Below are positions 52,768 through 63,652 of a stretch of DNA of 64,000 nucleotides, piece after piece. A program made the position numbers and the translations under genes. The stretch is from assembly GCF_053078305.1 (NCBI RefSeq), contig NZ_CP166879.1; one strand, given 5' to 3'. Every line of letters begins with the position of its first letter. The first letter of the stretch is position 1. Under the pieces are notes generated by a model. That model ran no database searches. It worked only from the letters and a program-made list of their open reading frames with translations, and had not been told where the DNA came from.

Positions 52768-53418
52768 TTAATTTGATTTATTCGCATCCATCAACGCTTT
52801 TAACTCCTCCGGCGTAAACGGTGGTTTGCGTCGGTGCAACATCGCATGGCAATTAGGGCACACAGGAAGTAAATCATTAACTGGATCCAGCAGGTAATCC
52901 TCTTTAATGGCTGAAAGCGGCACCAGGTGATGCATATGGATAAAGCCCTCAGCGATATCGCCATAGATCTTCACCAGATCAACGCCGCATACGTTGCACT
53001 GGCATCCGTGATATTCGACTGCTTTCTCGCGAGCTTTTTTATCGCGTTCATAGCTGTTTACCGTCACCTTTATCGCCGCACCTTCAACGTAGGTCCCCTG
53101 CGACGGCAACTCATCCGGGAACAGAACATCGGCTATGGGAGCCGCAGCGGCTTTATCCTGATGAATATGAAATCCCTGATCTATAAGTAGCTTGACGCAT
53201 TTAGATTTTATTCCGCCGGTGAAATCCGCAGGGGTAAATTGCGTCCCCGTCATCAATGTCGCTGCGATGCCAGCAATCGCCTTCGAGGGGTAACGTCGGC
53301 CATGATATTCAATCTCATACAACCGTGCAGGCTGGAACTGATGAGTTTCTCCCGCATCCCATAAATGAATAGCTTTGATGATATACCGCCGAGGAAGATG
53401 ATCGGGGAGTTTATTCAT
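52768..53418 (-). CDS. HNH-endonuclease-domain protein (possible modification-dependent restriction nuclease)
   Basis: 216 aa with a C-terminal HNH/zinc-finger signature CQCNVCG…HMHHLVP…N…CPNCH. The N-terminal domain is unidentified. Confidence 0.55.
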   Translation of the reverse strand: MNKLPDHLPRRYIIKAIHLWDAGETHQFQPARLYEIEYHGRRYPSKAIAGIAATLMTGTQFTPADFTGGIKSKCVKLLIDQGFHIHQDKAAAAPIADVLFPDELPSQGTYVEGAAIKVTVNSYERDKKAREKAVEYHGCQCNVCGVDLVKIYGDIAEGFIHMHHLVPLSAIKEDYLLDPVNDLLPVCPNCHAMLHRRKPPFTPEELKALMDANKSN

Positions 53419-53497
53419 GGAGAATGTCCTTATACGTTCTCAGAACAAGCAGCAAAAAAACAAATGAGATCAAAGTAATATATCTTCACTTGCAGGC

Positions 53498-54427
53498 TTG
53501 AACAGCAGAAAATTTGCGAGCATGATCGCAATTATTTCACTGCCAGGGATATCAATGGCTTCCAGTAAATCGCTACAGCAGGCAATTGCCAATATAAAAA
53601 TCTGGCATAAGGGTGAACAGCGCGCGCCGCATAAGCCATTGTTATTGCTATACGTATTAGCGGGATACCTGCATGGACATCCGCGCCTTTTCGATTATGG
53701 CTCGGAAATCTACGAACCTCTGCACAGTTTACTGGAACGTTTTGGGCCACAGCGTTCACAGTACCGACCTGATATGCCGTTCTGGCGATTACAAGGCGAC
53801 GGATTCTGGCAATTACACAATGCCGAGCGTTGCTCAACAGCAGGGAGCAGCCGACAACCGCCAGTGAAGGAACTGAACGAATACCACGTTGCAGGCGGTT
53901 TCGATGAACAGCACTACGCCCTGGTAACCGGCAATAAAAAACTCATCAATACTCTGGCGCAACAGATACTCGAAGCGCACTTCACCGAGAGTATTCAGGA
54001 AGAAATTGCTGACGAGCTGGGTTTTGATCTCCAGCAAATCCGTAAACAGCGCGACCCGTTATTTCGCAAAAATGTATTACGCGCTTATAAATACCAGTGC
54101 GCGATATGTGGCTTTAATATGCGCCACGACGACACCACCGTCGCGCTGGAAGCGGCGCATATAAAATGGAAACAGCACGGCGGTCCTTGTGAAATTCCTA
54201 ATGGCCTGGCGCTTTGCGCAATTCACCATAAAGCCTTTGATAAAGGATCGATTGGCCTGGACGAAAATATGCGGGTACTGGTATCAGATGCGGTAAACGG
54301 CGGAGGGATCGTTGAGAGATTATTCTGGGATTTTGACGGGAAAACTATTGCGTTGCCGCAGGTGCGTAAAAATTACCCTTATGAGGGGTTTGTGGAGTGG
54401 CATCGGAAAGAGGTTTTTAGGGGGTGA
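53498..54427 (+). CDS. HNH-endonuclease-domain protein (second copy, divergent)
   Basis: 309 aa with a C-terminal HNH signature YQCAICGF…AAHIKW…NGLALCAIHHKAFDKG. The N-terminal domain is unidentified. Confidence 0.55.
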   Translation: MNSRKFASMIAIISLPGISMASSKSLQQAIANIKIWHKGEQRAPHKPLLLLYVLAGYLHGHPRLFDYGSEIYEPLHSLLERFGPQRSQYRPDMPFWRLQGDGFWQLHNAERCSTAGSSRQPPVKELNEYHVAGGFDEQHYALVTGNKKLINTLAQQILEAHFTESIQEEIADELGFDLQQIRKQRDPLFRKNVLRAYKYQCAICGFNMRHDDTTVALEAAHIKWKQHGGPCEIPNGLALCAIHHKAFDKGSIGLDENMRVLVSDAVNGGGIVERLFWDFDGKTIALPQVRKNYPYEGFVEWHRKEVFRG

Positions 54428-55049: not shown

Positions 55050-57320
55050 CTAATCATTTCCCTTACGAATATATGGGCCAAAAGCCCAAGAATCATAATA
55101 AGGGTGATGGACTAGTTTTTCATTAAATCGAACACTATAAGTTAATTTTTTTATATTTTTACGTACAGCATTAATACTGGGCAAAGAGGAAAGATAATCT
55201 ATAAACTTATCGATAGTGATTTCCCCTTCGCAACACTCAAACCCATCAATGATATTTTTCGCCATTTTTCCATTTTCATTTGTTTGATATATCACTCCAG
55301 GTATTCGTTGAAAAAAACTAGATAATGCATATTTGTCCGCTACATATGTATCATCCACATGATATTTCCCACCGAGCATAGTTGTAGTAACAATAAGCTT
55401 ATACACACCTTTGGGTTGCCATGTTGATGGTAGTTCGAATTCTTTAATGATCACATCAAGATGATTAAGATAATGTTCAGAAATTCGATTTATTTGTTGA
55501 AAATAAGAACGCATAAATTTATTATTATGATCATGTATTAATGAGCTATCTCCAACGATGTTACACACTTGCTGATAGTACTTACCATAATATATTGGTT
55601 GACCATTTGATTTTAGTTCTGTAAAAATCAAACAATCATCCAGGAGAATCACGCAATCGCACTGATAATTAGCATGAGCATCAATTGGAGAAGCTTTAAT
55701 CCCCGCATCACGAACTTGTTTTATAAATTGTTGCTCATGAAATCGCCCTTTACTTGCTTGAGAAATTTTTTTGGAACCAAATAATGACATTAGAGAGCGA
55801 GTCACTGAGCTATTTGCTATTAATGCAGGCATTAAGCATAAACCGTCCATACAGGGAATAAATGGGCAATCATTAAGATCATGTGATTTTGAATTGAAGG
55901 TAAAATAATCTATCAGTTTTTTTGCTGCATCTGCTGCAATCCCCTTACGTTGAAAGAATGATAACCAACTCTCACGGCTTTTTATGATCAGCCAGCGATC
56001 CAACTGTAGGGGTATAGGTTTTGTCGATGAAAATCTTTTGCTCATTTCTTCTTTAGATAACTCGACTAAACATTGATAAGCGTGCACCCAATTAAATAAT
56101 GATATATTCCCATATTCTTCATGAAGGTCATCAGGAGATATATTTTCCAACTCGCTTAGATGAAATGAGCTAAAAACGCCATCAGAATTTAAGTAAGATG
56201 GCATATGATCCTTTACCCAACTATTTAGATGAAAATGTTTGTTACTAAATTCATGAACTTCGCTATATAGATGTGACGCTCTCATCATTAGTCTATTTCT
56301 TGCAATCTCATAATCTCGGTATAAACAAAAACTATCAACCTCAAGAGAGTAAATGTTATTATCCAATTTTGTAAATACTGCACTACTTAGTCTGAAAAAG
56401 TCTCTTACTCTGCTTAATGAGTCAAAAACATTCCACTCATTAAGGTACCCTCCCATTGAAAGCAAGGTTTGTTTATTCACACAAGAAGTTAGTTTCAATG
56501 GCTCATGAGTCCGTAAATAAGAAAATATTCGTCCGGTGTAATTGGCTACCTCATCAAATGCCCTATCGATAACTCGAAAATATTCGATATCAGGTTCAGC
56601 ATGAATATTAATATTTTCAGAAACGATTACTCTGCTTAATGAGTCAAAAACATTCCACTCATTAAGGTACCCTCCCATTGAAAGCAAGGTTTGTTTATTC
56701 ACACAAGAAGTTAGTTTCAATGGCTCATGAGTCCGTAAATAAGAAAATATTCGTCCGGTGTAATTGGCTACCTCATCAAATGCCCTATCGATAACTCGAA
56801 AATATTCGATATCAGGTTCAGCATGAATATTAATATTTTCAGAAACGATAAATAATGGAAAAATCCTCTTCATTTTTTTAGGATCATTGACCACAACCAA
56901 GGATGATAATGATGATAAAAACATCTCACAAAACATGATGAGATTAAGTATTAATGCATGTGATTTTTTTGTATTTTTACGCCAAATACCAGCACATTTT
57001 GTAGCCGCAAAGAAAGAATTATTTATATCATGCATAATTTTACATTGACTCTCGAACTCAGAAATTAGTTCAATGTTATCAGGAAATGAGTTTACTAGCT
57101 CATTAATACATTTTTTGAATGTATTGTTATACTCAACTTCAGTCTGAACTGAAAATCTATTATAATAGATGGAAGATATTCTCAGCACATCCAAGGCGAT
57201 ATCTATACTAATATCATCTCTTTTTATGTACTCACAAAAAAAAGAACAAAACTGTTTCGGGTCGTTAGCAAGATTACTAATTCTAGTGGTATCATAAACT
57301 TTTTCCATTTTTCCATACAT
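55050..57320 (-). CDS. Large low-GC hypothetical protein (756 aa) with an internal 74-aa perfect tandem duplication
   Basis: Long minus-strand ORF with its own AT-rich upstream region and no recognisable family by eye. A possible PD-(D/E)XK-like motif (CDCVILLDD…TELK) lies in the C-terminal third. Confidence 0.5.
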   Translation of the reverse strand: MYGKMEKVYDTTRISNLANDPKQFCSFFCEYIKRDDISIDIALDVLRISSIYYNRFSVQTEVEYNNTFKKCINELVNSFPDNIELISEFESQCKIMHDINNSFFAATKCAGIWRKNTKKSHALILNLIMFCEMFLSSLSSLVVVNDPKKMKRIFPLFIVSENINIHAEPDIEYFRVIDRAFDEVANYTGRIFSYLRTHEPLKLTSCVNKQTLLSMGGYLNEWNVFDSLSRVIVSENINIHAEPDIEYFRVIDRAFDEVANYTGRIFSYLRTHEPLKLTSCVNKQTLLSMGGYLNEWNVFDSLSRVRDFFRLSSAVFTKLDNNIYSLEVDSFCLYRDYEIARNRLMMRASHLYSEVHEFSNKHFHLNSWVKDHMPSYLNSDGVFSSFHLSELENISPDDLHEEYGNISLFNWVHAYQCLVELSKEEMSKRFSSTKPIPLQLDRWLIIKSRESWLSFFQRKGIAADAAKKLIDYFTFNSKSHDLNDCPFIPCMDGLCLMPALIANSSVTRSLMSLFGSKKISQASKGRFHEQQFIKQVRDAGIKASPIDAHANYQCDCVILLDDCLIFTELKSNGQPIYYGKYYQQVCNIVGDSSLIHDHNNKFMRSYFQQINRISEHYLNHLDVIIKEFELPSTWQPKGVYKLIVTTTMLGGKYHVDDTYVADKYALSSFFQRIPGVIYQTNENGKMAKNIIDGFECCEGEITIDKFIDYLSSLPSINAVRKNIKKLTYSVRFNEKLVHHPYYDSWAFGPYIRKGND
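56405..56849 (-). repeat. Perfect 222-bp direct tandem duplication, in frame, inside the 756-aa ORF
   Basis: The two adjacent 222-bp copies are identical by eye and encode …SENINIHAEPDIEYFRVIDRAF…NEWNVFDSLSRV twice. Confidence 0.85.
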
Positions 57321-57975
57321 CCTATTGTCTAAATTACTATAAAACTAGCCACTTAACTAATAATTATAAATTTCATCTTTTACACCTTGCATTTTTATAA
57401 CCAATGAAATCTACAACAAGCAACTGATGGATAATCCGATATTGGTCGCATTTAATGGCATGGTAGCAAAGTTTTCATCACATACCTCCTTTGCACCAGA
57501 ATAAACGCCAGAGATCTGAAATTGCGAGTACACTACAGAAATTGTACTGCTGGTCCCATCAGCATAAAACCATAGTTACACAGGTAATCATCATTATTCG
57601 CCAAGATAATAAATATTATTCGGTAGAATAGCGTTCTCAGGTGGTCAGTAAAATTGTCTTCAACAAGATGTCTGCGCATCTCGTCTGCTAGCCCTACATA
57701 ACTGCTCTCGACCGAAACTATTTATTGAATGTTCACCAAGGTGGGCGTGGAGACAAAATGACGTCTTTTGATATTAGCTACCTGAGCCACATGGTCAAAA
57801 CGTTCAAGTAGCATAGCGAAACCACCCTGCCCACGTAATGTGGACGATGCAGCTTCCAGCCAGAGCAAACTTGGGACCATCGACTACAAAATGAAGAATA
57901 CTGAACTGCTTTTCTGGCAGGCCTATATACTGCACGGATATGGGTGATTTCAGACACAAAAAAAGCCGCCCTTGA

Positions 57976-57998
57976 GCGACTCGATTTGCATACGGTGT
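57976..57998 (-). repeat. att-site remnant: partial copy of a tRNA-Leu (leuX-like) 3' end
   Basis: The minus strand reads GTTCGAGTCCGGCCTTCGCACCA (T-arm, acceptor stem, CCA) with one base missing relative to leuX as I recall it. There is no upstream tRNA body, so this is not a functional tRNA. Confidence 0.5.
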
Positions 57999-58285
57999 GG
58001 TGCGAAGGCCGGACTCGAACATTTAATTAAACAACTGTATTTAAATAGTTTTTGTATTTAAAAATGAATTGATGCCCCTTTTTGTGCCCCCATTACCAAA
58101 ATAACAACCTAACCTTGTACTAAAAAAGAGATTTTTCAATGTAGGCACTCTGGTTCGGCTACGCTTACCGGAGACGAACCTGAACATAAGAAATCTGAGA
58201 TAACTTCATAGTAATCATCTTTAACACTTTTGACCAATAATATCTATCATAAAGGCAGAGAAATTAATCTCTGCCTTTATTAAGG

Positions 58286-59154
58286 TCACATAAAAAGATT
58301 ATTAATTAGAGTACACTGTTGACATCCATTAATATCTACAGCTTTTAAAAAATCTGTGTTACTAATCAAAACAGCATTACTAACACCTGAAAACTGCAGC
58401 TGTGCATACATACCTAAGATAGATTTTTTTTCGTAATACTGAGATCTTCCTGTATAACTTTCACCAGTATTAGAACTTATAAATCGCCTCGTTCTTTCTT
58501 GTATCAATAAATTATTTTTAAGGAAGCTCAAAATATCTTGCTGCAATTGTTTGTTTTTGTTATGAAAATAACATAACAATTGATCCTCTAAGGTACCAAG
58601 CTGAGTGTTAACGTCATGAAAAATATACCCCCCCATTCACTCCCATTAAACTCAATAATACTTCCATTGGAGAGTTGAGTAGTATCTTCTAAACCTATCT
58701 CATTTTTAATCTCTGTTATTCTGGCATCAATGCCAAGTTCATCAGCATCAAAAAAATATAAAAATCTATATGCAATTTCTATACTGAAGTCATCTGTACC
58801 AGAAAGTTCTTTATACATAGTGACTAACTCAGCCCTTTCACGACTTCTGCCATCACCATTTAGATTATGTATAAAAATTAAGTTCCCGTTATGATAGAAA
58901 CAAACAGAAGGTAGTTTTGGCCCGTTTGGCTGAAAGCCAAGTTTTTTATCTGGAATTCTTACTTGACTTAGTTCTTTTTCAAAGCGTTTATCAAACGGTG
59001 GAGGTAATTGACCAATTTTAAGATCTTGAAGTTGGAATCCATTAACTAAAAGAATTCTGCTAAGAAAAGCGACGTCATGCTGTCCTTCACAAAAGGCAAC
59101 TATGACTCTATTATAAGATACACTCACAATTTTAGCCTCTAATATCAAGATCAA
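58286..59154 (-). pseudogene. Toprim-like (OLD/AriB-like) gene split by a frameshift at a G7 tract
   Basis: ORFs 58588-59154 and 58286-58636 overlap across a C7/G7 homopolymer (58628-58634). The N-terminus has VAFCEGQHD and a later FFDADELG (Glu … DxD), suggestive of a Toprim fold. Fusing the frames gives an approximately 300-aa protein. Confidence 0.45.
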
Positions 59155-61369
59155 TATTTTTTATCAAATAGCCAAATCTTTCGCCATCAGCCCTTTTCAC
59201 TACTACTTTATCGTCAACTTTGCTTAACTGAAATCCAGTAATGCAATCATTATTATAATCATTATTTAAAAAAGCTCTGATACATTCACCCGAATGTGAC
59301 GTAAGGAACACTTGCACATTGAAACGTTCTGCAAGTTGTTGCGTAAATTTAGTAAACTCCAATAGTAAACTATAATGAATCGCAGTTTCAAATTCATCAA
59401 TAAAAAGTACACCGTTACGACATGCAGCAAAAGATAAAGCTATATAAAAGATGCGCTGAATACCCTCTCCATAAGAAGTAAGATCGAAACTTCTGTTAAA
59501 ATCATATGCTGATTCTACGATAAACCTTTTGAGCTCCATGTCTTCAGTAAATCTGACATCTTTTATCGTTGGCTCAATTTTATTCATGAATTCAATAACA
59601 AGGCCGATAGCGGATTGTATATTTAAATCATCTGATTCTGAGTCAGTTACAGACGTTAAATTTGCACCTATACTTTTGTTATAATCAGTGAGCAAATCGT
59701 CTATATCGTAGAAATAAGGGCTTTTAAATGACGATGAACACAAATGCGAAACTTGATCAGCGTTCCTTCTCATACGTTCATGGATAAAAGTATGGACTGT
59801 GTTATTTCTAAATTCTCCATCAATGCTAGACTTTAAGCTATAAGATGCTATATAGTCATCTTGTTTATCAATTGAAGAATCATCATATTTAATCATTTCA
59901 ACAGTAACATTACTATCATCAAATACTCCTGACAAGATTATTTTATCTTGGAAAAGAGCATTTAGCAATGTTGGACTCAAAGTACTGATTTTATTTTTTT
60001 GCCTAATAAGATTAAAATGCGATGAAATATCATTACGCTGCGTCAATAAGTAAATTGCTTCAAGCAATGAAGTTTTTCCAGCATTATTAAAGCCAGCAAT
60101 GATATTAATCTTATTGAAATTATCCAATGAGAAGTTTTTAAAGAATTTATATTTTTTGATATAAATGGATTTAAAATGTTTTTTTACTCCATACTCAAAA
60201 TTAGTTGTATAGTTTCCTCCTTCGATATTTATAGCCATCTGCTTTGGCATTATTTGTGTTAGTTTTTCTTTTGCATCATCTAATAAGCGCAAATCCTCTT
60301 GGTTTATGAGGCTACTATATAGATTTAAATCCTTTAAGGCGTCTTCAAGCTTGCTTAAAGCATTTTTATAGTTTTGCTGATTTACTGAACCGCTCGCAGC
60401 TAATCCTCTTGCAAGGCTACGTTCATCCTCCATTACCTTCAAGGCTTTTTCATTATTGATGAACAAAGCAAGATCTCGTATCTCAAGAGATTTAGTAATT
60501 ATAGGTTCTAGCTCAACGTATTCACCATTACTTTCCTCTTCAATATCATCTTCTAGCTCATTTTTCTCAAGGTATTCATCTGTTTTAGAGATCCACGAAA
60601 AAAGCCTATCAAGATTCACTAAATTTCTAGCATAATAACCGTTATCACTCCAGTCTAACCAAGATTTAATTACAGGCTTTTTGATTATTTCTTCAAAAAT
60701 ACCAAACATACTTGGTTCGAATTGCTCACCATACTCACTTGTTTTATATAAGGAAATTAGATTATAAACTCTAAGCATAGAGCGAAGACGCGTTTTAGAA
60801 ATACCGAGCGAACTAACTAGCTCATCTTCTTTTTCAACATACTCATCTCGAGTTTTGTCTTCATATGGTTTTAAAAAATCATAAAGCAGTTTGGACTGAT
60901 TATATGTTGACCACTTTTTATTACCACTTATATGCTTTAATCCCATTACAATCAGATGTTTTTCAACATCTTGATTATTATGGATTTCGAAAGGAACACT
61001 TCTAAAAATAGATGGATCTAGTTTTCCAATATCAAACCCCTTTTCATATGCTTCTTGCAATGCTTTCAGCGCCGTTACACGACGATTTCCCTCAAGGACT
61101 AAATAATTGTTATCTCCTAAATCCTTTACTTGAATAACATCAACATCTAAGTATCCATTAGATTTAAAACTTGCTATTAGATCTTTGATATTCTCTTGTC
61201 TATTTCCTTCTATAAAAAAGCGAGTCCTACGCTGAATTGTTGGATCTAGCATGTCCTTTTCTGAGACTGGCTTGTGCTGGTCATTGTCAACAAAACGGTA
61301 GTTATTAGGATCTAGAAATAAATTTTTTAAATTTTTGCTAATGCGCGGGCGAATTTGCTCGACATTCAT
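59132..61369 (-). CDS. Fusion of an N-terminal ParB/Srx-like domain with a C-terminal ABC-type (SMC/RecF/OLD-like) ATPase
   Basis: 745 aa. ParB box LVLEGNRRVTALKAL near the N-terminus; Walker A GFNNAGKTS, Walker B LFIDEFE and H-loop LTSHS in the C-terminal half. Low GC. Confidence 0.6.
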   Translation of the reverse strand: MNVEQIRPRISKNLKNLFLDPNNYRFVDNDQHKPVSEKDMLDPTIQRRTRFFIEGNRQENIKDLIASFKSNGYLDVDVIQVKDLGDNNYLVLEGNRRVTALKALQEAYEKGFDIGKLDPSIFRSVPFEIHNNQDVEKHLIVMGLKHISGNKKWSTYNQSKLLYDFLKPYEDKTRDEYVEKEDELVSSLGISKTRLRSMLRVYNLISLYKTSEYGEQFEPSMFGIFEEIIKKPVIKSWLDWSDNGYYARNLVNLDRLFSWISKTDEYLEKNELEDDIEEESNGEYVELEPIITKSLEIRDLALFINNEKALKVMEDERSLARGLAASGSVNQQNYKNALSKLEDALKDLNLYSSLINQEDLRLLDDAKEKLTQIMPKQMAINIEGGNYTTNFEYGVKKHFKSIYIKKYKFFKNFSLDNFNKINIIAGFNNAGKTSLLEAIYLLTQRNDISSHFNLIRQKNKISTLSPTLLNALFQDKIILSGVFDDSNVTVEMIKYDDSSIDKQDDYIASYSLKSSIDGEFRNNTVHTFIHERMRRNADQVSHLCSSSFKSPYFYDIDDLLTDYNKSIGANLTSVTDSESDDLNIQSAIGLVIEFMNKIEPTIKDVRFTEDMELKRFIVESAYDFNRSFDLTSYGEGIQRIFYIALSFAACRNGVLFIDEFETAIHYSLLLEFTKFTQQLAERFNVQVFLTSHSGECIRAFLNNDYNNDCITGFQLSKVDDKVVVKRADGERFGYLIKNIDLDIRG

Positions 61370-61630
61370 ATGTCACCTCAATGGTGTAGGAACTATACAA
61401 TGCAACTTTACTTGATACCTCAGCAATCAACAACTTCATGTTTTTGAAACTAAGCGCGCGCAGCCCCGCACGCCTGCCCGCTTCGCTTAACAGACTGGTT
61501 TTCATGCACCTCATAAATCGTCTCAGAAGCCACCAAACAAGGGTTTTCTCGTCAAAAATGGTGCATAAGACTCATGCGTTTTCATGCGCCATAGACATGC
61601 ACTCATTCGCTCTCATGCCAGCCAGGAAAA

Positions 61631-61662
61631 GGGGATAAAAAATCCCGGTACTGGACCGGGAT
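61631..61662 (-). terminator. Intrinsic terminator after the ogr/delta gene
   Basis: The minus strand reads ATCCCGGTCCAGTACCGGGAT followed by TTTTTAT, 21 nt after the stop. Confidence 0.55.
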
Positions 61663-61682
61663 TACGTGGGCGTTCTTTCTAA

Positions 61683-61964
61683 TCAGACAGGAATCTGCTG
61701 ACGGCTTGACAGTTTTGACGCGGAGCCATAGCGATTAAGTGTTTGCTGTTGTTTTTCCGGGGATTGTGCTTTGTCTGATAGCTGTTCATTGCGTCGGGGT
61801 TTCATGATTATCTTATCCACACTCTCCAGTGCCGTAAATGTGCAGGAACATTCCAGATTCTGGCACTGATACCACGAGCGTTTAACTGACGGAGCTTCAT
61901 AGGCTGCTGTTCTGGCGTGTGCAACTGTACCGCATTCCGGACATTTAAGTGCCATTAATATCAC
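61683..61964 (-). CDS. Ogr/Delta-family zinc-finger late-gene activator
   Basis: 93 aa with a CPECG…HARTA…YQCQNLECSCTF four-cysteine motif, like P2 Ogr and P4 Delta. Confidence 0.8.
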   Translation of the reverse strand: MILMALKCPECGTVAHARTAAYEAPSVKRSWYQCQNLECSCTFTALESVDKIIMKPRRNEQLSDKAQSPEKQQQTLNRYGSASKLSSRQQIPV

Positions 61965-62512
61965 TCCTGTATATCGTTAATGTCATTCAGGCGTTGCTGA
62001 AAACGCAGATGTTGTGCCGGGGTGTAAGAGCCCTGGCAATCACGAATCATCCCGGGGTCAGGCATCAAACCGGATTCATCCAGGATCTCACGATAATCCC
62101 CGGCAATTTCAGGCGGTGTTATTGTCAGCTGGCGAACCAGAGCACTGCGTAATATACGGGACGCAACGTCAACCCCTCCGCGCCCCTTCAGGAACGGAGC
62201 CAGTGCAGATGTCAGGGCTGCCCCATTCGCCTGCATAAAATTGCTGAGAGCGGCTTCTGTGCAGGCTTCCATCAGTAAATGCTGCGAGTAAATGCATTCG
62301 CGCGCAGCACAGTTAATTTGCCATTTCAGCACATCCAGACGTTCCCGCAGTAATTCGAGCTGTCGGGCATAATCTGCTGGTTTTTCTGTGGCAGCGAGGA
62401 GAGATGCTATCTGTTGTTCAACGGCTTTTCGGCTCTCACTATGTCCGGCCCACAGAATACGGGCATTCCGAAAACTGGTAAGTGCCTGGTCAGGCGTGCC
62501 TCGGGCCGTCAT
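61961..62512 (-). CDS. Psu-like (polarity suppression / capsid decoration) protein, tentative
   Basis: 183 aa, helical composition, size close to P4 Psu (about 190 aa). Operon position is between the sid-like and ogr-like genes. Confidence 0.5.
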   Translation of the reverse strand: MTARGTPDQALTSFRNARILWAGHSESRKAVEQQIASLLAATEKPADYARQLELLRERLDVLKWQINCAARECIYSQHLLMEACTEAALSNFMQANGAALTSALAPFLKGRGGVDVASRILRSALVRQLTITPPEIAGDYREILDESGLMPDPGMIRDCQGSYTPAQHLRFQQRLNDINDIQE

Positions 62513-63252
62513 ACTGCTTTCTCCTTCTCAGCAAGTTCCTGACGAACCTTAATTTTATGCATAGCTGCCGGAGAGAGTTGATTACTGAAATCCAGACGCG
62601 CCGCATAATCCGGGGCAATTCCCGCCAGTTTAAACACCGGGTCCTGTTCAGGCATCGCATCGTTAGCCAGAGCCGGTCTGGTGATATGTTTATGAATAAA
62701 GTCTTTCAGCACTGTGTCCGGGTCATTAACTGAATTCACCACACCCACAACGGCACTGGCTTCCCGGCCCATTGTGGATTTAAGCAGGCTCAGCGTCTGA
62801 ATAAGCGCTTTTCCATGCGATTGCATAAAATCTTCCCAGATTTGTTTTGCGCGAATATCCACAAGAATGTTATGCGCGTGGATATACTTTCCGGCTAATT
62901 CCGCAGCTTTCTGCGGCAAAAGTGCATTTTCGCTTTCCTGAGCCGCCAGCAGCTCATCAAAATCCTCAAGCGTTTCTCGTCCCAGCGCAATTTCCGTGCG
63001 CAGTTTTTTCATTTCCTTTGAAACCACGCCCTGACTTTCACGAAACAGCGTGCGCCACTCCTCATTCAGTGTGTTCGTCGTGGCTTCCATCTCAGCGCGA
63101 CGCTGGCGGATTGTCGCAATATTATCCGCTGCCGCTTTCTGCTGACGACGTGCTTCAAGCCATGCGTTTCTGGCTGTGTTCATGGTTTCCAGTGCCCGCT
63201 GCGTTACAGCCGGAAAAGTGGAAAGGTTGTTATTCACTGCGGTGTTGTTCAT
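62509..63252 (-). CDS. Sid-like capsid size-determination protein, tentative
   Basis: 247 aa (P4 Sid is about 244 aa), first gene of the operon, with an AGGAG ribosome-binding site before the ATG at 63252 and TGT-N12-ACA dyads upstream. Confidence 0.5.
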   Translation of the reverse strand: MNNTAVNNNLSTFPAVTQRALETMNTARNAWLEARRQQKAAADNIATIRQRRAEMEATTNTLNEEWRTLFRESQGVVSKEMKKLRTEIALGRETLEDFDELLAAQESENALLPQKAAELAGKYIHAHNILVDIRAKQIWEDFMQSHGKALIQTLSLLKSTMGREASAVVGVVNSVNDPDTVLKDFIHKHITRPALANDAMPEQDPVFKLAGIAPDYAARLDFSNQLSPAAMHKIKVRQELAEKEKAV

Positions 63253-63276
63253 GGCTTCTCCTGTCGGGTTGGTTCG

Positions 63277-63332
63277 TTACGTCAATTGTGTCGTGGCTGA
63301 CACAAGCACACTATCGGTGCTCAGTGTGTGGT
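63277..63332 (-). promoter_or_regulatory. Two TGT-N12-ACA dyads (candidate Ogr/Delta activator sites) upstream of sid
   Basis: TTGTGTCGTGGCTGACACAA (63276-63295) and TGTGTGGTGGCTGGCACA (63315-63332), about 38 bp apart. Confidence 0.45.
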
Positions 63333-63430
63333 GGCTGGCACAACGGGCGCTTGCGGTTATTCAGACGTGGCTATGAAAGCCAGCCAGATAAAAATGCCCT
63401 CAGTTTCAGTCTGCTTTATGTCCCTGATGC

Positions 63431-63619
63431 GGTGGAACAGGTGAAACATGTGTTACAGCTTTGTTTTATAAAGCACTTATATACACTGCACCGGTGGAAC
63501 ATCGCGGGTAACAAGGTGGAACAGCGGATTGGCTGGCGTTACATCTGTTCCACCTCACTATTTCAGAAGGTGGAACAGGTTCAGCCCTGTAAAATACGGT
63601 TGTTCCACCTGTTTCACCT
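63431..63619. repeat. Iteron cluster: about 8 copies of GGTGGAACA/TGTTCCACC in both orientations (P4 crr/ori-like)
   Basis: Perfect copies at 63431, 63493, 63515, 63546 (rc), 63569 and 63601 (rc), plus variants GGTGAAACA (63441) and TGTTTCACC (63611). P4 crr/ori carry TGTTCACC repeats bound by the alpha protein. Confidence 0.6.
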
Positions 63620-63652
63620 GTTACCCTTAATAAATAAGACTCACGCAAAGCC

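Follow-up and report, generated by a model that had tools for sequence, protein, structure and literature searches.

A ParB-like ATPase and a Toprim-like partner as a candidate two-gene anti-phage cassette in the cargo slot of a P4-like satellite

Background

Two adjoining genes in the cargo slot of a P4-like satellite, located on contig NZ_CP166879.1 of the NCBI RefSeq assembly GCF_053078305.1, probably act together as an OLD/PARIS/AbiL-like cassette against phages or mobile elements, which the satellite carries as swappable cargo. The window analysed here is the whole stretch of 64,000 nucleotides (nt) taken from this contig, and both genes lie on its minus strand. The upstream gene (gene 1) encodes a protein of 745 amino acids (aa) that joins a ParB-type N-terminal module to an OLD-type ATP-binding cassette (ABC) ATPase, and the downstream gene (gene 2), which is frameshifted in the window, encodes a Toprim-like protein. 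The evidence consists of the domain identities of the two proteins, their intact catalytic motifs, their obligate pairing and the defence-type contexts in which the pair occurs. By analogy with characterised systems, the best-supported division of labour would make gene 1 the sensor and transducer, and gene 2 the effector. An earlier reading of the same letters (the original prediction) had singled out the pair as a candidate anti-phage system that fits no named one; in our analysis it comes out as a so far uncharacterised form of a familiar kind of defence, already catalogued computationally as candidate PDC-M38.

Systems that combine an OLD-type ATPase with Toprim, including Old, Gabija, PARIS and retron effectors, are among the commonest bacterial defences; to our knowledge, the way in which infection is sensed is known for few of them. 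The overall logic of the present pair will not surprise specialists, and its most interesting lead is the portable ParB module: a strictly conserved sensor candidate, i.e. a ParB-like nucleoside triphosphate- and DNA-binding module, is fused here to the ATPase and is paired elsewhere with another nuclease family. This makes testable the question whether ParB-type switches, which are best known from chromosome partition, act as infection sensors that gate nucleases. In addition, the occurrence of the pair in a hotspot of the P2 helper phage, in a hotspot of the P4 satellite and in restriction-modification (R-M) operons offers a concrete case of defence cargo shuttling.

Results and discussion

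The pair matches a catalogued defence candidate end to end

The two genes and their parts, given as window coordinates, are as follows.

59132-61369, minus strand: gene 1, open reading frame (ORF) of 745 aa with a ParB-like N-domain, a helix-turn-helix (HTH)-like helical region and an OLD-type ABC ATPase
60980-61342, minus strand: ParB/Srx-fold N-domain of gene 1 (about aa 10-130), with the invariant motifs LDPNNYRF (19-26) and EGNRR (93-97)
60185-60979, minus strand: helical middle region of gene 1 (about aa 131-395), with an HTH-like DNA-binding part and the invariant motif MGLKHISGNKKW (142-153)
59135-60184, minus strand: OLD-type ABC ATPase domain of gene 1 (about aa 396-745)
58588-59127, minus strand: N-terminal fragment of gene 2, 179 aa from a GTG start at 59127, with the Toprim core and a premature stop past the frameshift
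58628-58634, minus strand: homopolymer tract at the frameshift site, G7 on the coding strand (C7 on the plus strand)
58286-58627, minus strand: C-terminal part of gene 2, out of frame here, a helical domain

Gene 1 matches the PADLOC profile PDLC04607 of PDC-M38A with an E-value of 0 and 1109 bits, its residues 1-745 being aligned with positions 1-715 of the 715 in the profile, and the intact form of the gene 2 protein (280 aa in the allele of the E. coli strain STEC276, see below) matches PDC-M38B with an E-value of 9.4e-139 over positions 2-278 of 278. In the window, the latter match is split over two ORFs, covering positions 2-168 and 163-278, respectively. Both proteins thus match the entry end to end, with the same adjacency and gene order, and hidden Markov model E-values of this size exclude chance for the pair. 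PDC-M38 is a computational catalogue entry only, and PADLOC would thus flag this locus as no more than a candidate; the other PDC-M38A profiles, of about 370 positions, cover the ATPase part alone, so that the ParB-fused form represents one sub-type. A literature search with 'PDC-M38', 'DUF3226' and the two RefSeq accessions found no paper that names PDC-M38 and no experiment on the pair, and the 2020 classification of ABC ATPases by Krishnan and Aravind may describe ParB-OLD-ABC fusions.

The C-terminal half of gene 1 carries a complete set of ABC ATPase motifs. GFNNAGKTS at residues 426-434 forms the Walker A motif with Lys432, LTSYGEG at 630-636 is the ABC signature, LFIDEFE at 655-661 contains the Walker B residues D658-E659, and LTSHS at 689-693 provides the H-loop histidine H692; all four elements are conserved across 118 full-length homologues. 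Pfam matches are AAA_21 (E 2.4e-16, 61.1 bits) and AAA_15 (40.8 bits), which together cover residues 400-697, and the PADLOC profiles that match include AbiLi (1.3e-36), NsnB (6.7e-19), AriA (3.6e-18), Old (6.8e-9) and several of GajA. Judged by these motifs and profiles, this half is an OLD/AbiLi/AriA-type ABC ATPase with its catalytic motifs intact, which bears out the SMC/RecF/OLD-type ATPase proposed originally; the motifs quoted for both genes at that time are all present. The profile searches that had been suggested as a check thus returned ParB (see below) as well as ABC-ATPase homology, with matches of gene 1 to AAA_15 and AAA_21 and none of gene 2 to DUF4435. The exact gene 1 protein was found on 726 public contigs, and it does not differ at any position between the window and the intact STEC276 locus. 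A tblastn search of deposited phage genomes with gene 1 gave no match at E ≤ 1e-20.

The N-terminal half of gene 1 resembles the ParB module of partition proteins

Residues 1-395 are the best-conserved part of gene 1 among the 118 full-length homologues. Pfam ParB_N matches gene 1 itself with E-values of 0.08-0.2; among 31 homologues, 24 match this family at E ≤ 0.1 and one at E ≤ 0.001. Furthermore, TIGR00180 (parB_part) matches gene 1 at E 8e-5, two ParB PHROGs do so as well, and N-terminal fragments of the protein are labelled 'ParB N-terminal domain-containing' at NCBI. Taken together, the sequence-level evidence for a ParB-type N-terminus is weak but consistent, in agreement with the ParB/Srx-like domain that had been noticed at first. 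Searches of PDB sequences with gene 1 and with a profile of its N-terminal part gave no match. The comparison list for the N-terminal half reads SbnI (7.7), pNOB8 ParB-N (7.7, 186 residues aligned), PadC (7.4), the serine kinase SerK (7.4), sulfiredoxin (7.2), the DNA-binding domain of KorB (7.1) and Spo0J (7.1, 152 residues aligned). On this basis, the module is a ParB N-domain with an HTH-like DNA-binding region after it, the layout found in partition ParBs. GmrSD_N (DUF262) was matched by two of the 31 homologues at E ≤ 0.1, against 24 for ParB_N, and by sequence the module therefore resembles the partition-ParB/KorB type more than the DUF262 type.

The motif LVLEGNRRVTALKAL, which had been quoted as ParB-like, lies at residues 90-104. 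It includes a phosphate-binding motif of the GxxRxxA type, in which E93-G-N-R-R97 is invariant in the 31 sequences and T99 and A100 are conserved; relatives with as little as 37% identity still have this motif. By eye, ParB box III aligns with a region whose invariant motif is a different one, MGLKHISGNKKW. The ParB domain and the middle region form a portable module of about 380 aa.

Two further arrangements of this module were observed. In one metagenomic lineage (L006:665-2554 and L007:428-2317), the partner ATPase is a protein of 629 aa. The first ~140 of these show no relation to ParB, while the remainder can be aligned with gene 1 from residue 204 on, as if the sensor domain had been swapped; in the L006 relative, the substitute domain had no Pfam match. 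On the other side, homologues of the module alone (350-376 aa, 27-35% identity) are encoded in a Bacillus genome, a Bacteroidota-type metagenome contig and an Arthrobacter genome, i.e. in three phyla (L013:6001-7855, L014:6001-7864 and L015:6001-7976), and in each of them an overlapping gene for an Mrr_cat nuclease (248-294 aa) lies directly downstream. This cassette of module and Mrr_cat corresponds to no named system in PADLOC v2. As far as the sequences go, the N-terminus of gene 1 behaves like a sensor module, being swapped in one lineage and standing alone elsewhere.

Gene 2 is a predicted Toprim protein of the DUF3226 family

The pair had been described as two overlapping, low-GC genes on the minus strand, with gene 2 beginning 23 nt before the end of gene 1. 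Coordinates, strand and base composition hold, the GC content of the pair being 0.31-0.33 vs 0.47-0.55 in the sid/psu/ogr region; the overlap is found only for the longest ORF, which starts at a TTG (58588-59154, 188 aa). We have set this start aside in favour of the GTG at 59127, which lies 4 nt past the stop of gene 1 and 8 nt past an AGAGG sequence and is also the start given by RefSeq. The remainder of gene 2 is found in a different frame, in an ORF at 58286-58636 (116 aa).

The motifs CEGQHD and FFDADELG are both present in gene 2. The invariant E14 stands right after the strand at residues 7-13, and the invariant D127-x-D129 closes the strand at 120-127; a Glu followed by DxD in this manner is the canonical arrangement of Toprim domains (PMC12065111), and the Toprim-like pattern of the original prediction is thus found at the expected strand ends. 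In the C-terminal part, the positions E181, K235, Q243-L-Q245, S247 and N251 are invariant. The intact protein gave no match to Pfam (E ≤ 10), NCBIfam or PHROG, nor to the PDB when searched by sequence as a single protein or as a profile. Among its homologues, 14 of 31 match DUF3226 (PF11536), and a Foldseek search returned PH0156 as the sole significant match. PH0156 of Pyrococcus horikoshii (2p62) is itself a DUF3226 (PF11536) protein, solved by structural genomics and without assigned function, to which gene 2 is linked through structure and homologues. The family of gene 2 comprises 459 representative clusters at E ≤ 1e-3 among 1.84 billion proteins, and its full-length members are nearly all stand-alone proteins of about 270-300 aa. 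These results support the prediction that gene 2 encodes an OLD-like Toprim protein of the DUF3226 family, which by analogy would be a metal-dependent nuclease.

A frameshift in a G tract splits gene 2 in the window

When a 3.3-kb region was compared with the STEC276 locus, only three positions differed, one of which is a missing homopolymer base. The intact allele reads TGG GGG GGG TAT, i.e. it has a run of eight G (G8), and the window has G7 through a deletion of 1 nt. G8 is also found in each of the 34 complete E. coli genomes with the pair. In public contigs, the products of the G7 allele were found on 19 (179-aa form) and 11 (116-aa form, WP_150527123.1), those of a G9 allele ('...EWGGVYFS*' and 'MSLMGVNGGGYIFHD...') on 14 and 3, and the intact gene 2 protein on 395, with a near-identical variant on 666. 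In a P2-like prophage, a homologue of 64% identity uses TGG GGA GGG for these Trp-Gly-Gly residues, with no run. The tract is the only G/C homopolymer of at least 6 bases in this pair of 32% GC. It could be a phase-variable switch or a homopolymer sequencing error.

The slip by -1 truncates gene 2 after residue 175, and the C-terminal 105 residues, including several invariant positions, are lost from the frame. With an effector cut short in this way and deprived of its conserved C-terminal part, the system is most likely OFF here unless G8 is regained by slippage, and the annotation of this genome should treat it as probably inactive. More broken alleles of gene 2, which are truncated or internally deleted (P0004, P0014, P0183 and P0184), occur in E. 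coli, Klebsiella and Citrobacter, and two truncated Klebsiella forms are each found on more than 120 contigs. Broken effector alleles, seen in the window beside an intact ATPase, fit either counter-selection of a toxic effector or decay of the cargo.

Relatives of the pair occur in defence contexts

In every relative examined, down to 37% identity, the long ATPase lies directly upstream of a protein of ~280-300 aa, and ATPase and Toprim are encoded by separate genes, which abut or overlap by 8 nt. The ATPases of these relatives have 708-747 aa and carry the LDPNNYR and GNRR motifs, except for the 629-aa lineage without ParB described above. Two P2-like prophages (L005:4755-7846 and L008:4762-7846) have the pair between gpA and the portal gene, with 74-82% identity for gene 1. 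The gpA-portal interval of P2 is known as the old/tin hotspot (PMC9122126), and the same cassette thus occurs both in the helper phage and in its satellite. At another locus (L009:483-9236) the pair separates hsdM from hsdR, and directly ahead of hsdM there is a gene with an RloB domain; one further relative adjoins hsdS. It is also found between the genes for a 991-aa N6/N4 methylase (type III-like) and a ResIII helicase (L002:836-9944), and in one case among genes for a radical SAM protein, a resolvase and a KAP NTPase. These contexts are those of defence cargo.

The pair is the sole cargo in the hotspot of a P4-like satellite

The flanks of the pair contain the following features.

62509-63252, minus strand: sid, an ORF with the RefSeq product in a 99.2%-identical E. 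coli locus
61961-62512, minus strand: psu, identified in the same two ways
61683-61964, minus strand: ogr/delta, identified likewise by its ORF and the RefSeq product in that locus
61641-61663, minus strand: intrinsic terminator after ogr/delta, with a 9-bp stem and a T-run
61373-61379, upstream of gene 1: strong Shine-Dalgarno sequence GAGGTGA, read from the sequence
58250-58278, minus strand: hairpin with an 11-bp stem, 8 nt past the stop of gene 2, terminator-like as read from the sequence
58003-58020, no strand: attachment site (att) repeat CGAAGGCCGGACTCGAAC of 18 nt, an exact copy of the 3' end of tRNA-Leu (leuX) in the reference locus

Positions 57998-64000 of the window are 99.2% identical to part of a P4-like satellite of E. 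coli STEC276, which is integrated at tRNA-Leu, and in this comparison the satellite homology begins at 57998. According to RefSeq, the genes of the STEC276 element are, in order, an integrase, a TOPRIM/DUF927 primase, a sid-like gene, psu, ogr/delta, an 'AAA family ATPase' of 745 aa and a hypothetical protein of 280 aa; this locus thus shows a full P4-like element, with alpha primase and integrase at tRNA-Leu. The 18-nt tRNA-Leu repeat marks the end of the satellite in the window. The P4-like cargo slot of the original prediction is therefore well founded, with sid, psu and ogr upstream and the tRNA-Leu repeat downstream as in the STEC276 satellite, and the interval from ogr/delta to att contains only two genes, i.e. 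the pair is the sole cargo. Rousset et al. (PMC9122126) described the psu-int hotspot, which in P4 itself contains gop-beta-cII, as a reservoir for anti-phage defences. The pair occupies this documented defence hotspot. It is present in 34 of 5426 complete E. coli genomes, with the conserved flanks matching in 482, and is therefore dispensable cargo of the element.

Because a terminator follows ogr/delta, the pair needs a promoter of its own, within 61370-61640. A scan for consensus promoters found 16 sites, compared with 15.1 expected from shuffles, and none above background. The hairpin past gene 2 lacks a clean T-run and was not called by a scan for consensus terminators. An Rfam search of 57300-64000 gave no match, and a repeat scan of the locus gave nothing convincing.

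Comparison with known systems

PARIS and Menshen are most similar to the pair in their working logic; the pair differs from both in that its ParB sensor and its ATPase form one protein and that its Toprim protein belongs to the DUF3226 type. With PARIS it shares a separate OLD-type ABC ATPase and Toprim effector, residence in the P4 hotspot and the match of gene 1 to the AriA profile. The thresholds for the PARIS ATPase set by Rousset et al. (PMC9122126), i.e. scores of 32 for AAA_15 and 27 for AAA_21, are exceeded by gene 1 with 40.8 and 61.1 bits, respectively, and in their table AriB is weakly linked to DUF3226 by HHpred (96.8% probability, ~60 aa). We have nevertheless rejected PARIS, because gene 2 has no DUF4435 (no Pfam match at E ≤ 10) and no match to the AriB profile at E ≤ 10, and AriB is not among the listed matches of the fold search. 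The best named ATPase match is AbiLi of AbiL (PDLC02336), which covers residues 399-738, i.e. the C-terminal half of gene 1 only. AbiL and RloAB share the two-gene layout of an ATPase and a Toprim-like protein, and RloAB-like pairs, like relatives of the present pair, are known from the interior of type I R-M loci. The ParB module of gene 1 has no counterpart in AbiLi, and gene 2 matches neither AbiLii (E ≤ 10) nor the Pfam families RloB and DUF4435.

Menshen has the same three functional parts: NsnA (ParB-DUF262 and ParBDB), NsnB (OLD-ABC and DUF3696) and NsnC (inPIN and a nuclease). A DNA-sensing module of the ParB superfamily, an OLD-type ABC ATPase and a nuclease that can be of the Toprim family are thus common to both, and the Menshen sensor is polymorphic too. 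Menshen is made up of three genes, whereas the pair has two, with the sensor fused to the ATPase. The NsnB profile matches gene 1 over positions 3-284 of 345, and no Pfam match to DUF3696 was found. Profiles of NsnA and NsnC are absent among the best 25 of 82 matches of gene 1, and gene 2 has no NsnC match. Menshen was therefore excluded: there are only two genes, the ParB domain is not of the DUF262 type, and there is neither a separate NsnA nor an inPIN effector gene. OLD nucleases (P2 Old of class 1, GajA of class 2) have ATPase and Toprim in one polypeptide and no ParB; gene 2 resembles them in its Toprim fold with a conserved Glu and DxD, and a class 1-3 OLD nuclease was excluded, as ATPase and Toprim are on separate proteins here. 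None of the novel P4 systems tested in a 2026 preprint (Crouga, Bandua, Aernus, Toga, Reve and Hailong; 10.64898/2026.02.27.708500) has this architecture, judged by their descriptions. The original statement that the pair belongs to no named system thus stands for PARIS, AbiL and Menshen, with the qualification that it is listed as the PADLOC candidate PDC-M38.

A possible mode of action and alternative explanations

By analogy with PARIS, P2 Old, Gabija and Menshen, the ATPase would form an oligomer that keeps the Toprim protein inactive in the uninfected cell. Upon infection, the ParB/HTH module would recognise a phage cue, which might be the DNA of the phage or else a protein that is DNA-like or counters restriction; a nucleotide may gate this recognition. 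The ATPase would then change its state and free or activate the nuclease, which would cut DNA or tRNA and halt the growth of the phage, probably at the cost of the cell. In PARIS, AriA senses Ocr and releases AriB, which cleaves tRNA (PMC11464382; PMC12839542). A further idea, which we hold to be tentative and rather doubtful, is that the ~380-aa module is a portable, nucleotide-gated DNA sensor or clamp on invading DNA that licenses the nuclease coupled to it, either Toprim through the ATPase or an Mrr-type PD-(D/E)xK nuclease without an ATPase, and that the G8 tract is an ON/OFF contingency locus. The latter part is suggested by the circulation of G7, G8 and G9 alleles.

Several points weigh against a defence cassette of the OLD/PARIS/AbiL kind. 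Since the literature searched holds no experiments on the family, its defensive role is deduced from context and homology only; the phage cue and the substrate of the nuclease are candidates proposed by analogy; gene 2 of the window has no Pfam, NCBIfam, PHROG or PDB sequence match, its assignment to Toprim coming from predicted structure and homologues; and in this and other lineages the effector gene is disrupted, which could equally mean that useless cargo is decaying. Another explanation is that in this genome the pair is a decaying pseudogene remnant without present function, or else that the frameshift is a homopolymer sequencing error in an intact system. Homopolymer indels are a common assembly artefact, gene 2 is split, and G7 and G9 are rare (19 and 14 contigs) against G8 (395 and 666). 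Nevertheless, the gene 1 protein is identical to that of the intact reference locus, and with only three nucleotide differences in 3.3 kb any decay must be very recent; a one-off error is made less likely by the exact G7 products, which recur on 19 and 11 contigs. Moreover, this explanation concerns the state of one strain and not the nature of the system, and we regard it as quite improbable. The pair could also be a toxin-antitoxin-like addiction module, in which the Toprim toxin and its ATPase antitoxin would mainly stabilise a satellite, prophage or R-M island and not sense phage. The pair is always found on mobile elements or islands, its effector gene has been inactivated repeatedly with gene 1 intact, as is expected of a toxic gene, and AriB of PARIS is toxic without AriA (review PMC13064643). 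An antitoxin of 745 aa with strictly conserved ParB motifs and a full set of ABC catalytic motifs would, however, far exceed the needs of neutralisation, and cargo of such hotspots has mostly proved anti-phage when tested (PMC9122126; preprint 10.64898/2026.02.27.708500). We regard addiction as improbable.

A more specific version of the defence reading holds that the pair is a backup guard for R-M, triggered by anti-restriction DNA mimics such as Ocr for which the ParB/HTH part serves as bait, as in PARIS or PrrC. Three of the non-prophage contexts examined lie in or beside type I or type III-like R-M operons, and Ocr is the trigger of PARIS, which among characterised systems is the nearest relative (PMC9122126; PMC12839542); the embedding of pairs in R-M operons suggests, as a hypothesis only, that anti-restriction proteins are the trigger. 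On the other hand, the pair stands alone in the P4 and P2 hotspots, with no adjoining R-M genes, and the ParB-type sensors of GmrSD, SspE and Menshen are thought to read DNA, not proteins (PMC12065111). This version is in our view unlikely. The layout of a ParB N-domain followed by an HTH, as in partition proteins, could also be taken to mean that the pair is a ParB-SMC-like device by which the satellite handles its own DNA, for maintenance in the plasmid state, replication or packaging. P4 can replicate as a plasmid. The same pair is nonetheless present in P2-like prophages, R-M operons and unrelated metagenomic islands, and in only 34 of the 5426 complete E. coli genomes against 482 for the flanks; there is no ParA partner at the locus, and the ATPase is of the OLD/AbiLi type rather than SMC or ParA and is always coupled to a Toprim protein. 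A partition function is accordingly highly improbable.

Other features of the locus and its surroundings

The intergenic region between ogr/delta and gene 1 (61440-61610) contains a GC-rich stretch on the minus strand, GGCGTGCGGGGCTGCGCGC, which we take to resemble the core of the P2/P4 cos site. The same region also carries a direct repeat, D2, with two copies that contain GCATGAAAAC and lie 80 nt apart.

Outside the satellite, a low-GC ORF of 756 aa (55050-57320, minus strand) contains a perfect in-frame tandem duplication of 222 bp at 56405-56849 (2.0 copies, 100% identity). Its product matches no Pfam, NCBIfam or PADLOC family. In other E. coli genomes the gene occurs as a single-copy form (2727 bp vs 2949 bp) and directly adjoins tRNA-Leu. 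Just outside the satellite, 53498-54427 (plus strand) encodes a homologue of the restriction endonuclease that binds phosphorothioated DNA (NCBIfam NF045808, E 5e-132), and 52768-53418, in the opposite direction, encodes a protein of 216 aa in which an HNH-like Cys/His motif can be seen by eye. The genes at 52768-54427 are more defence-type genes of the leuX-adjacent island.

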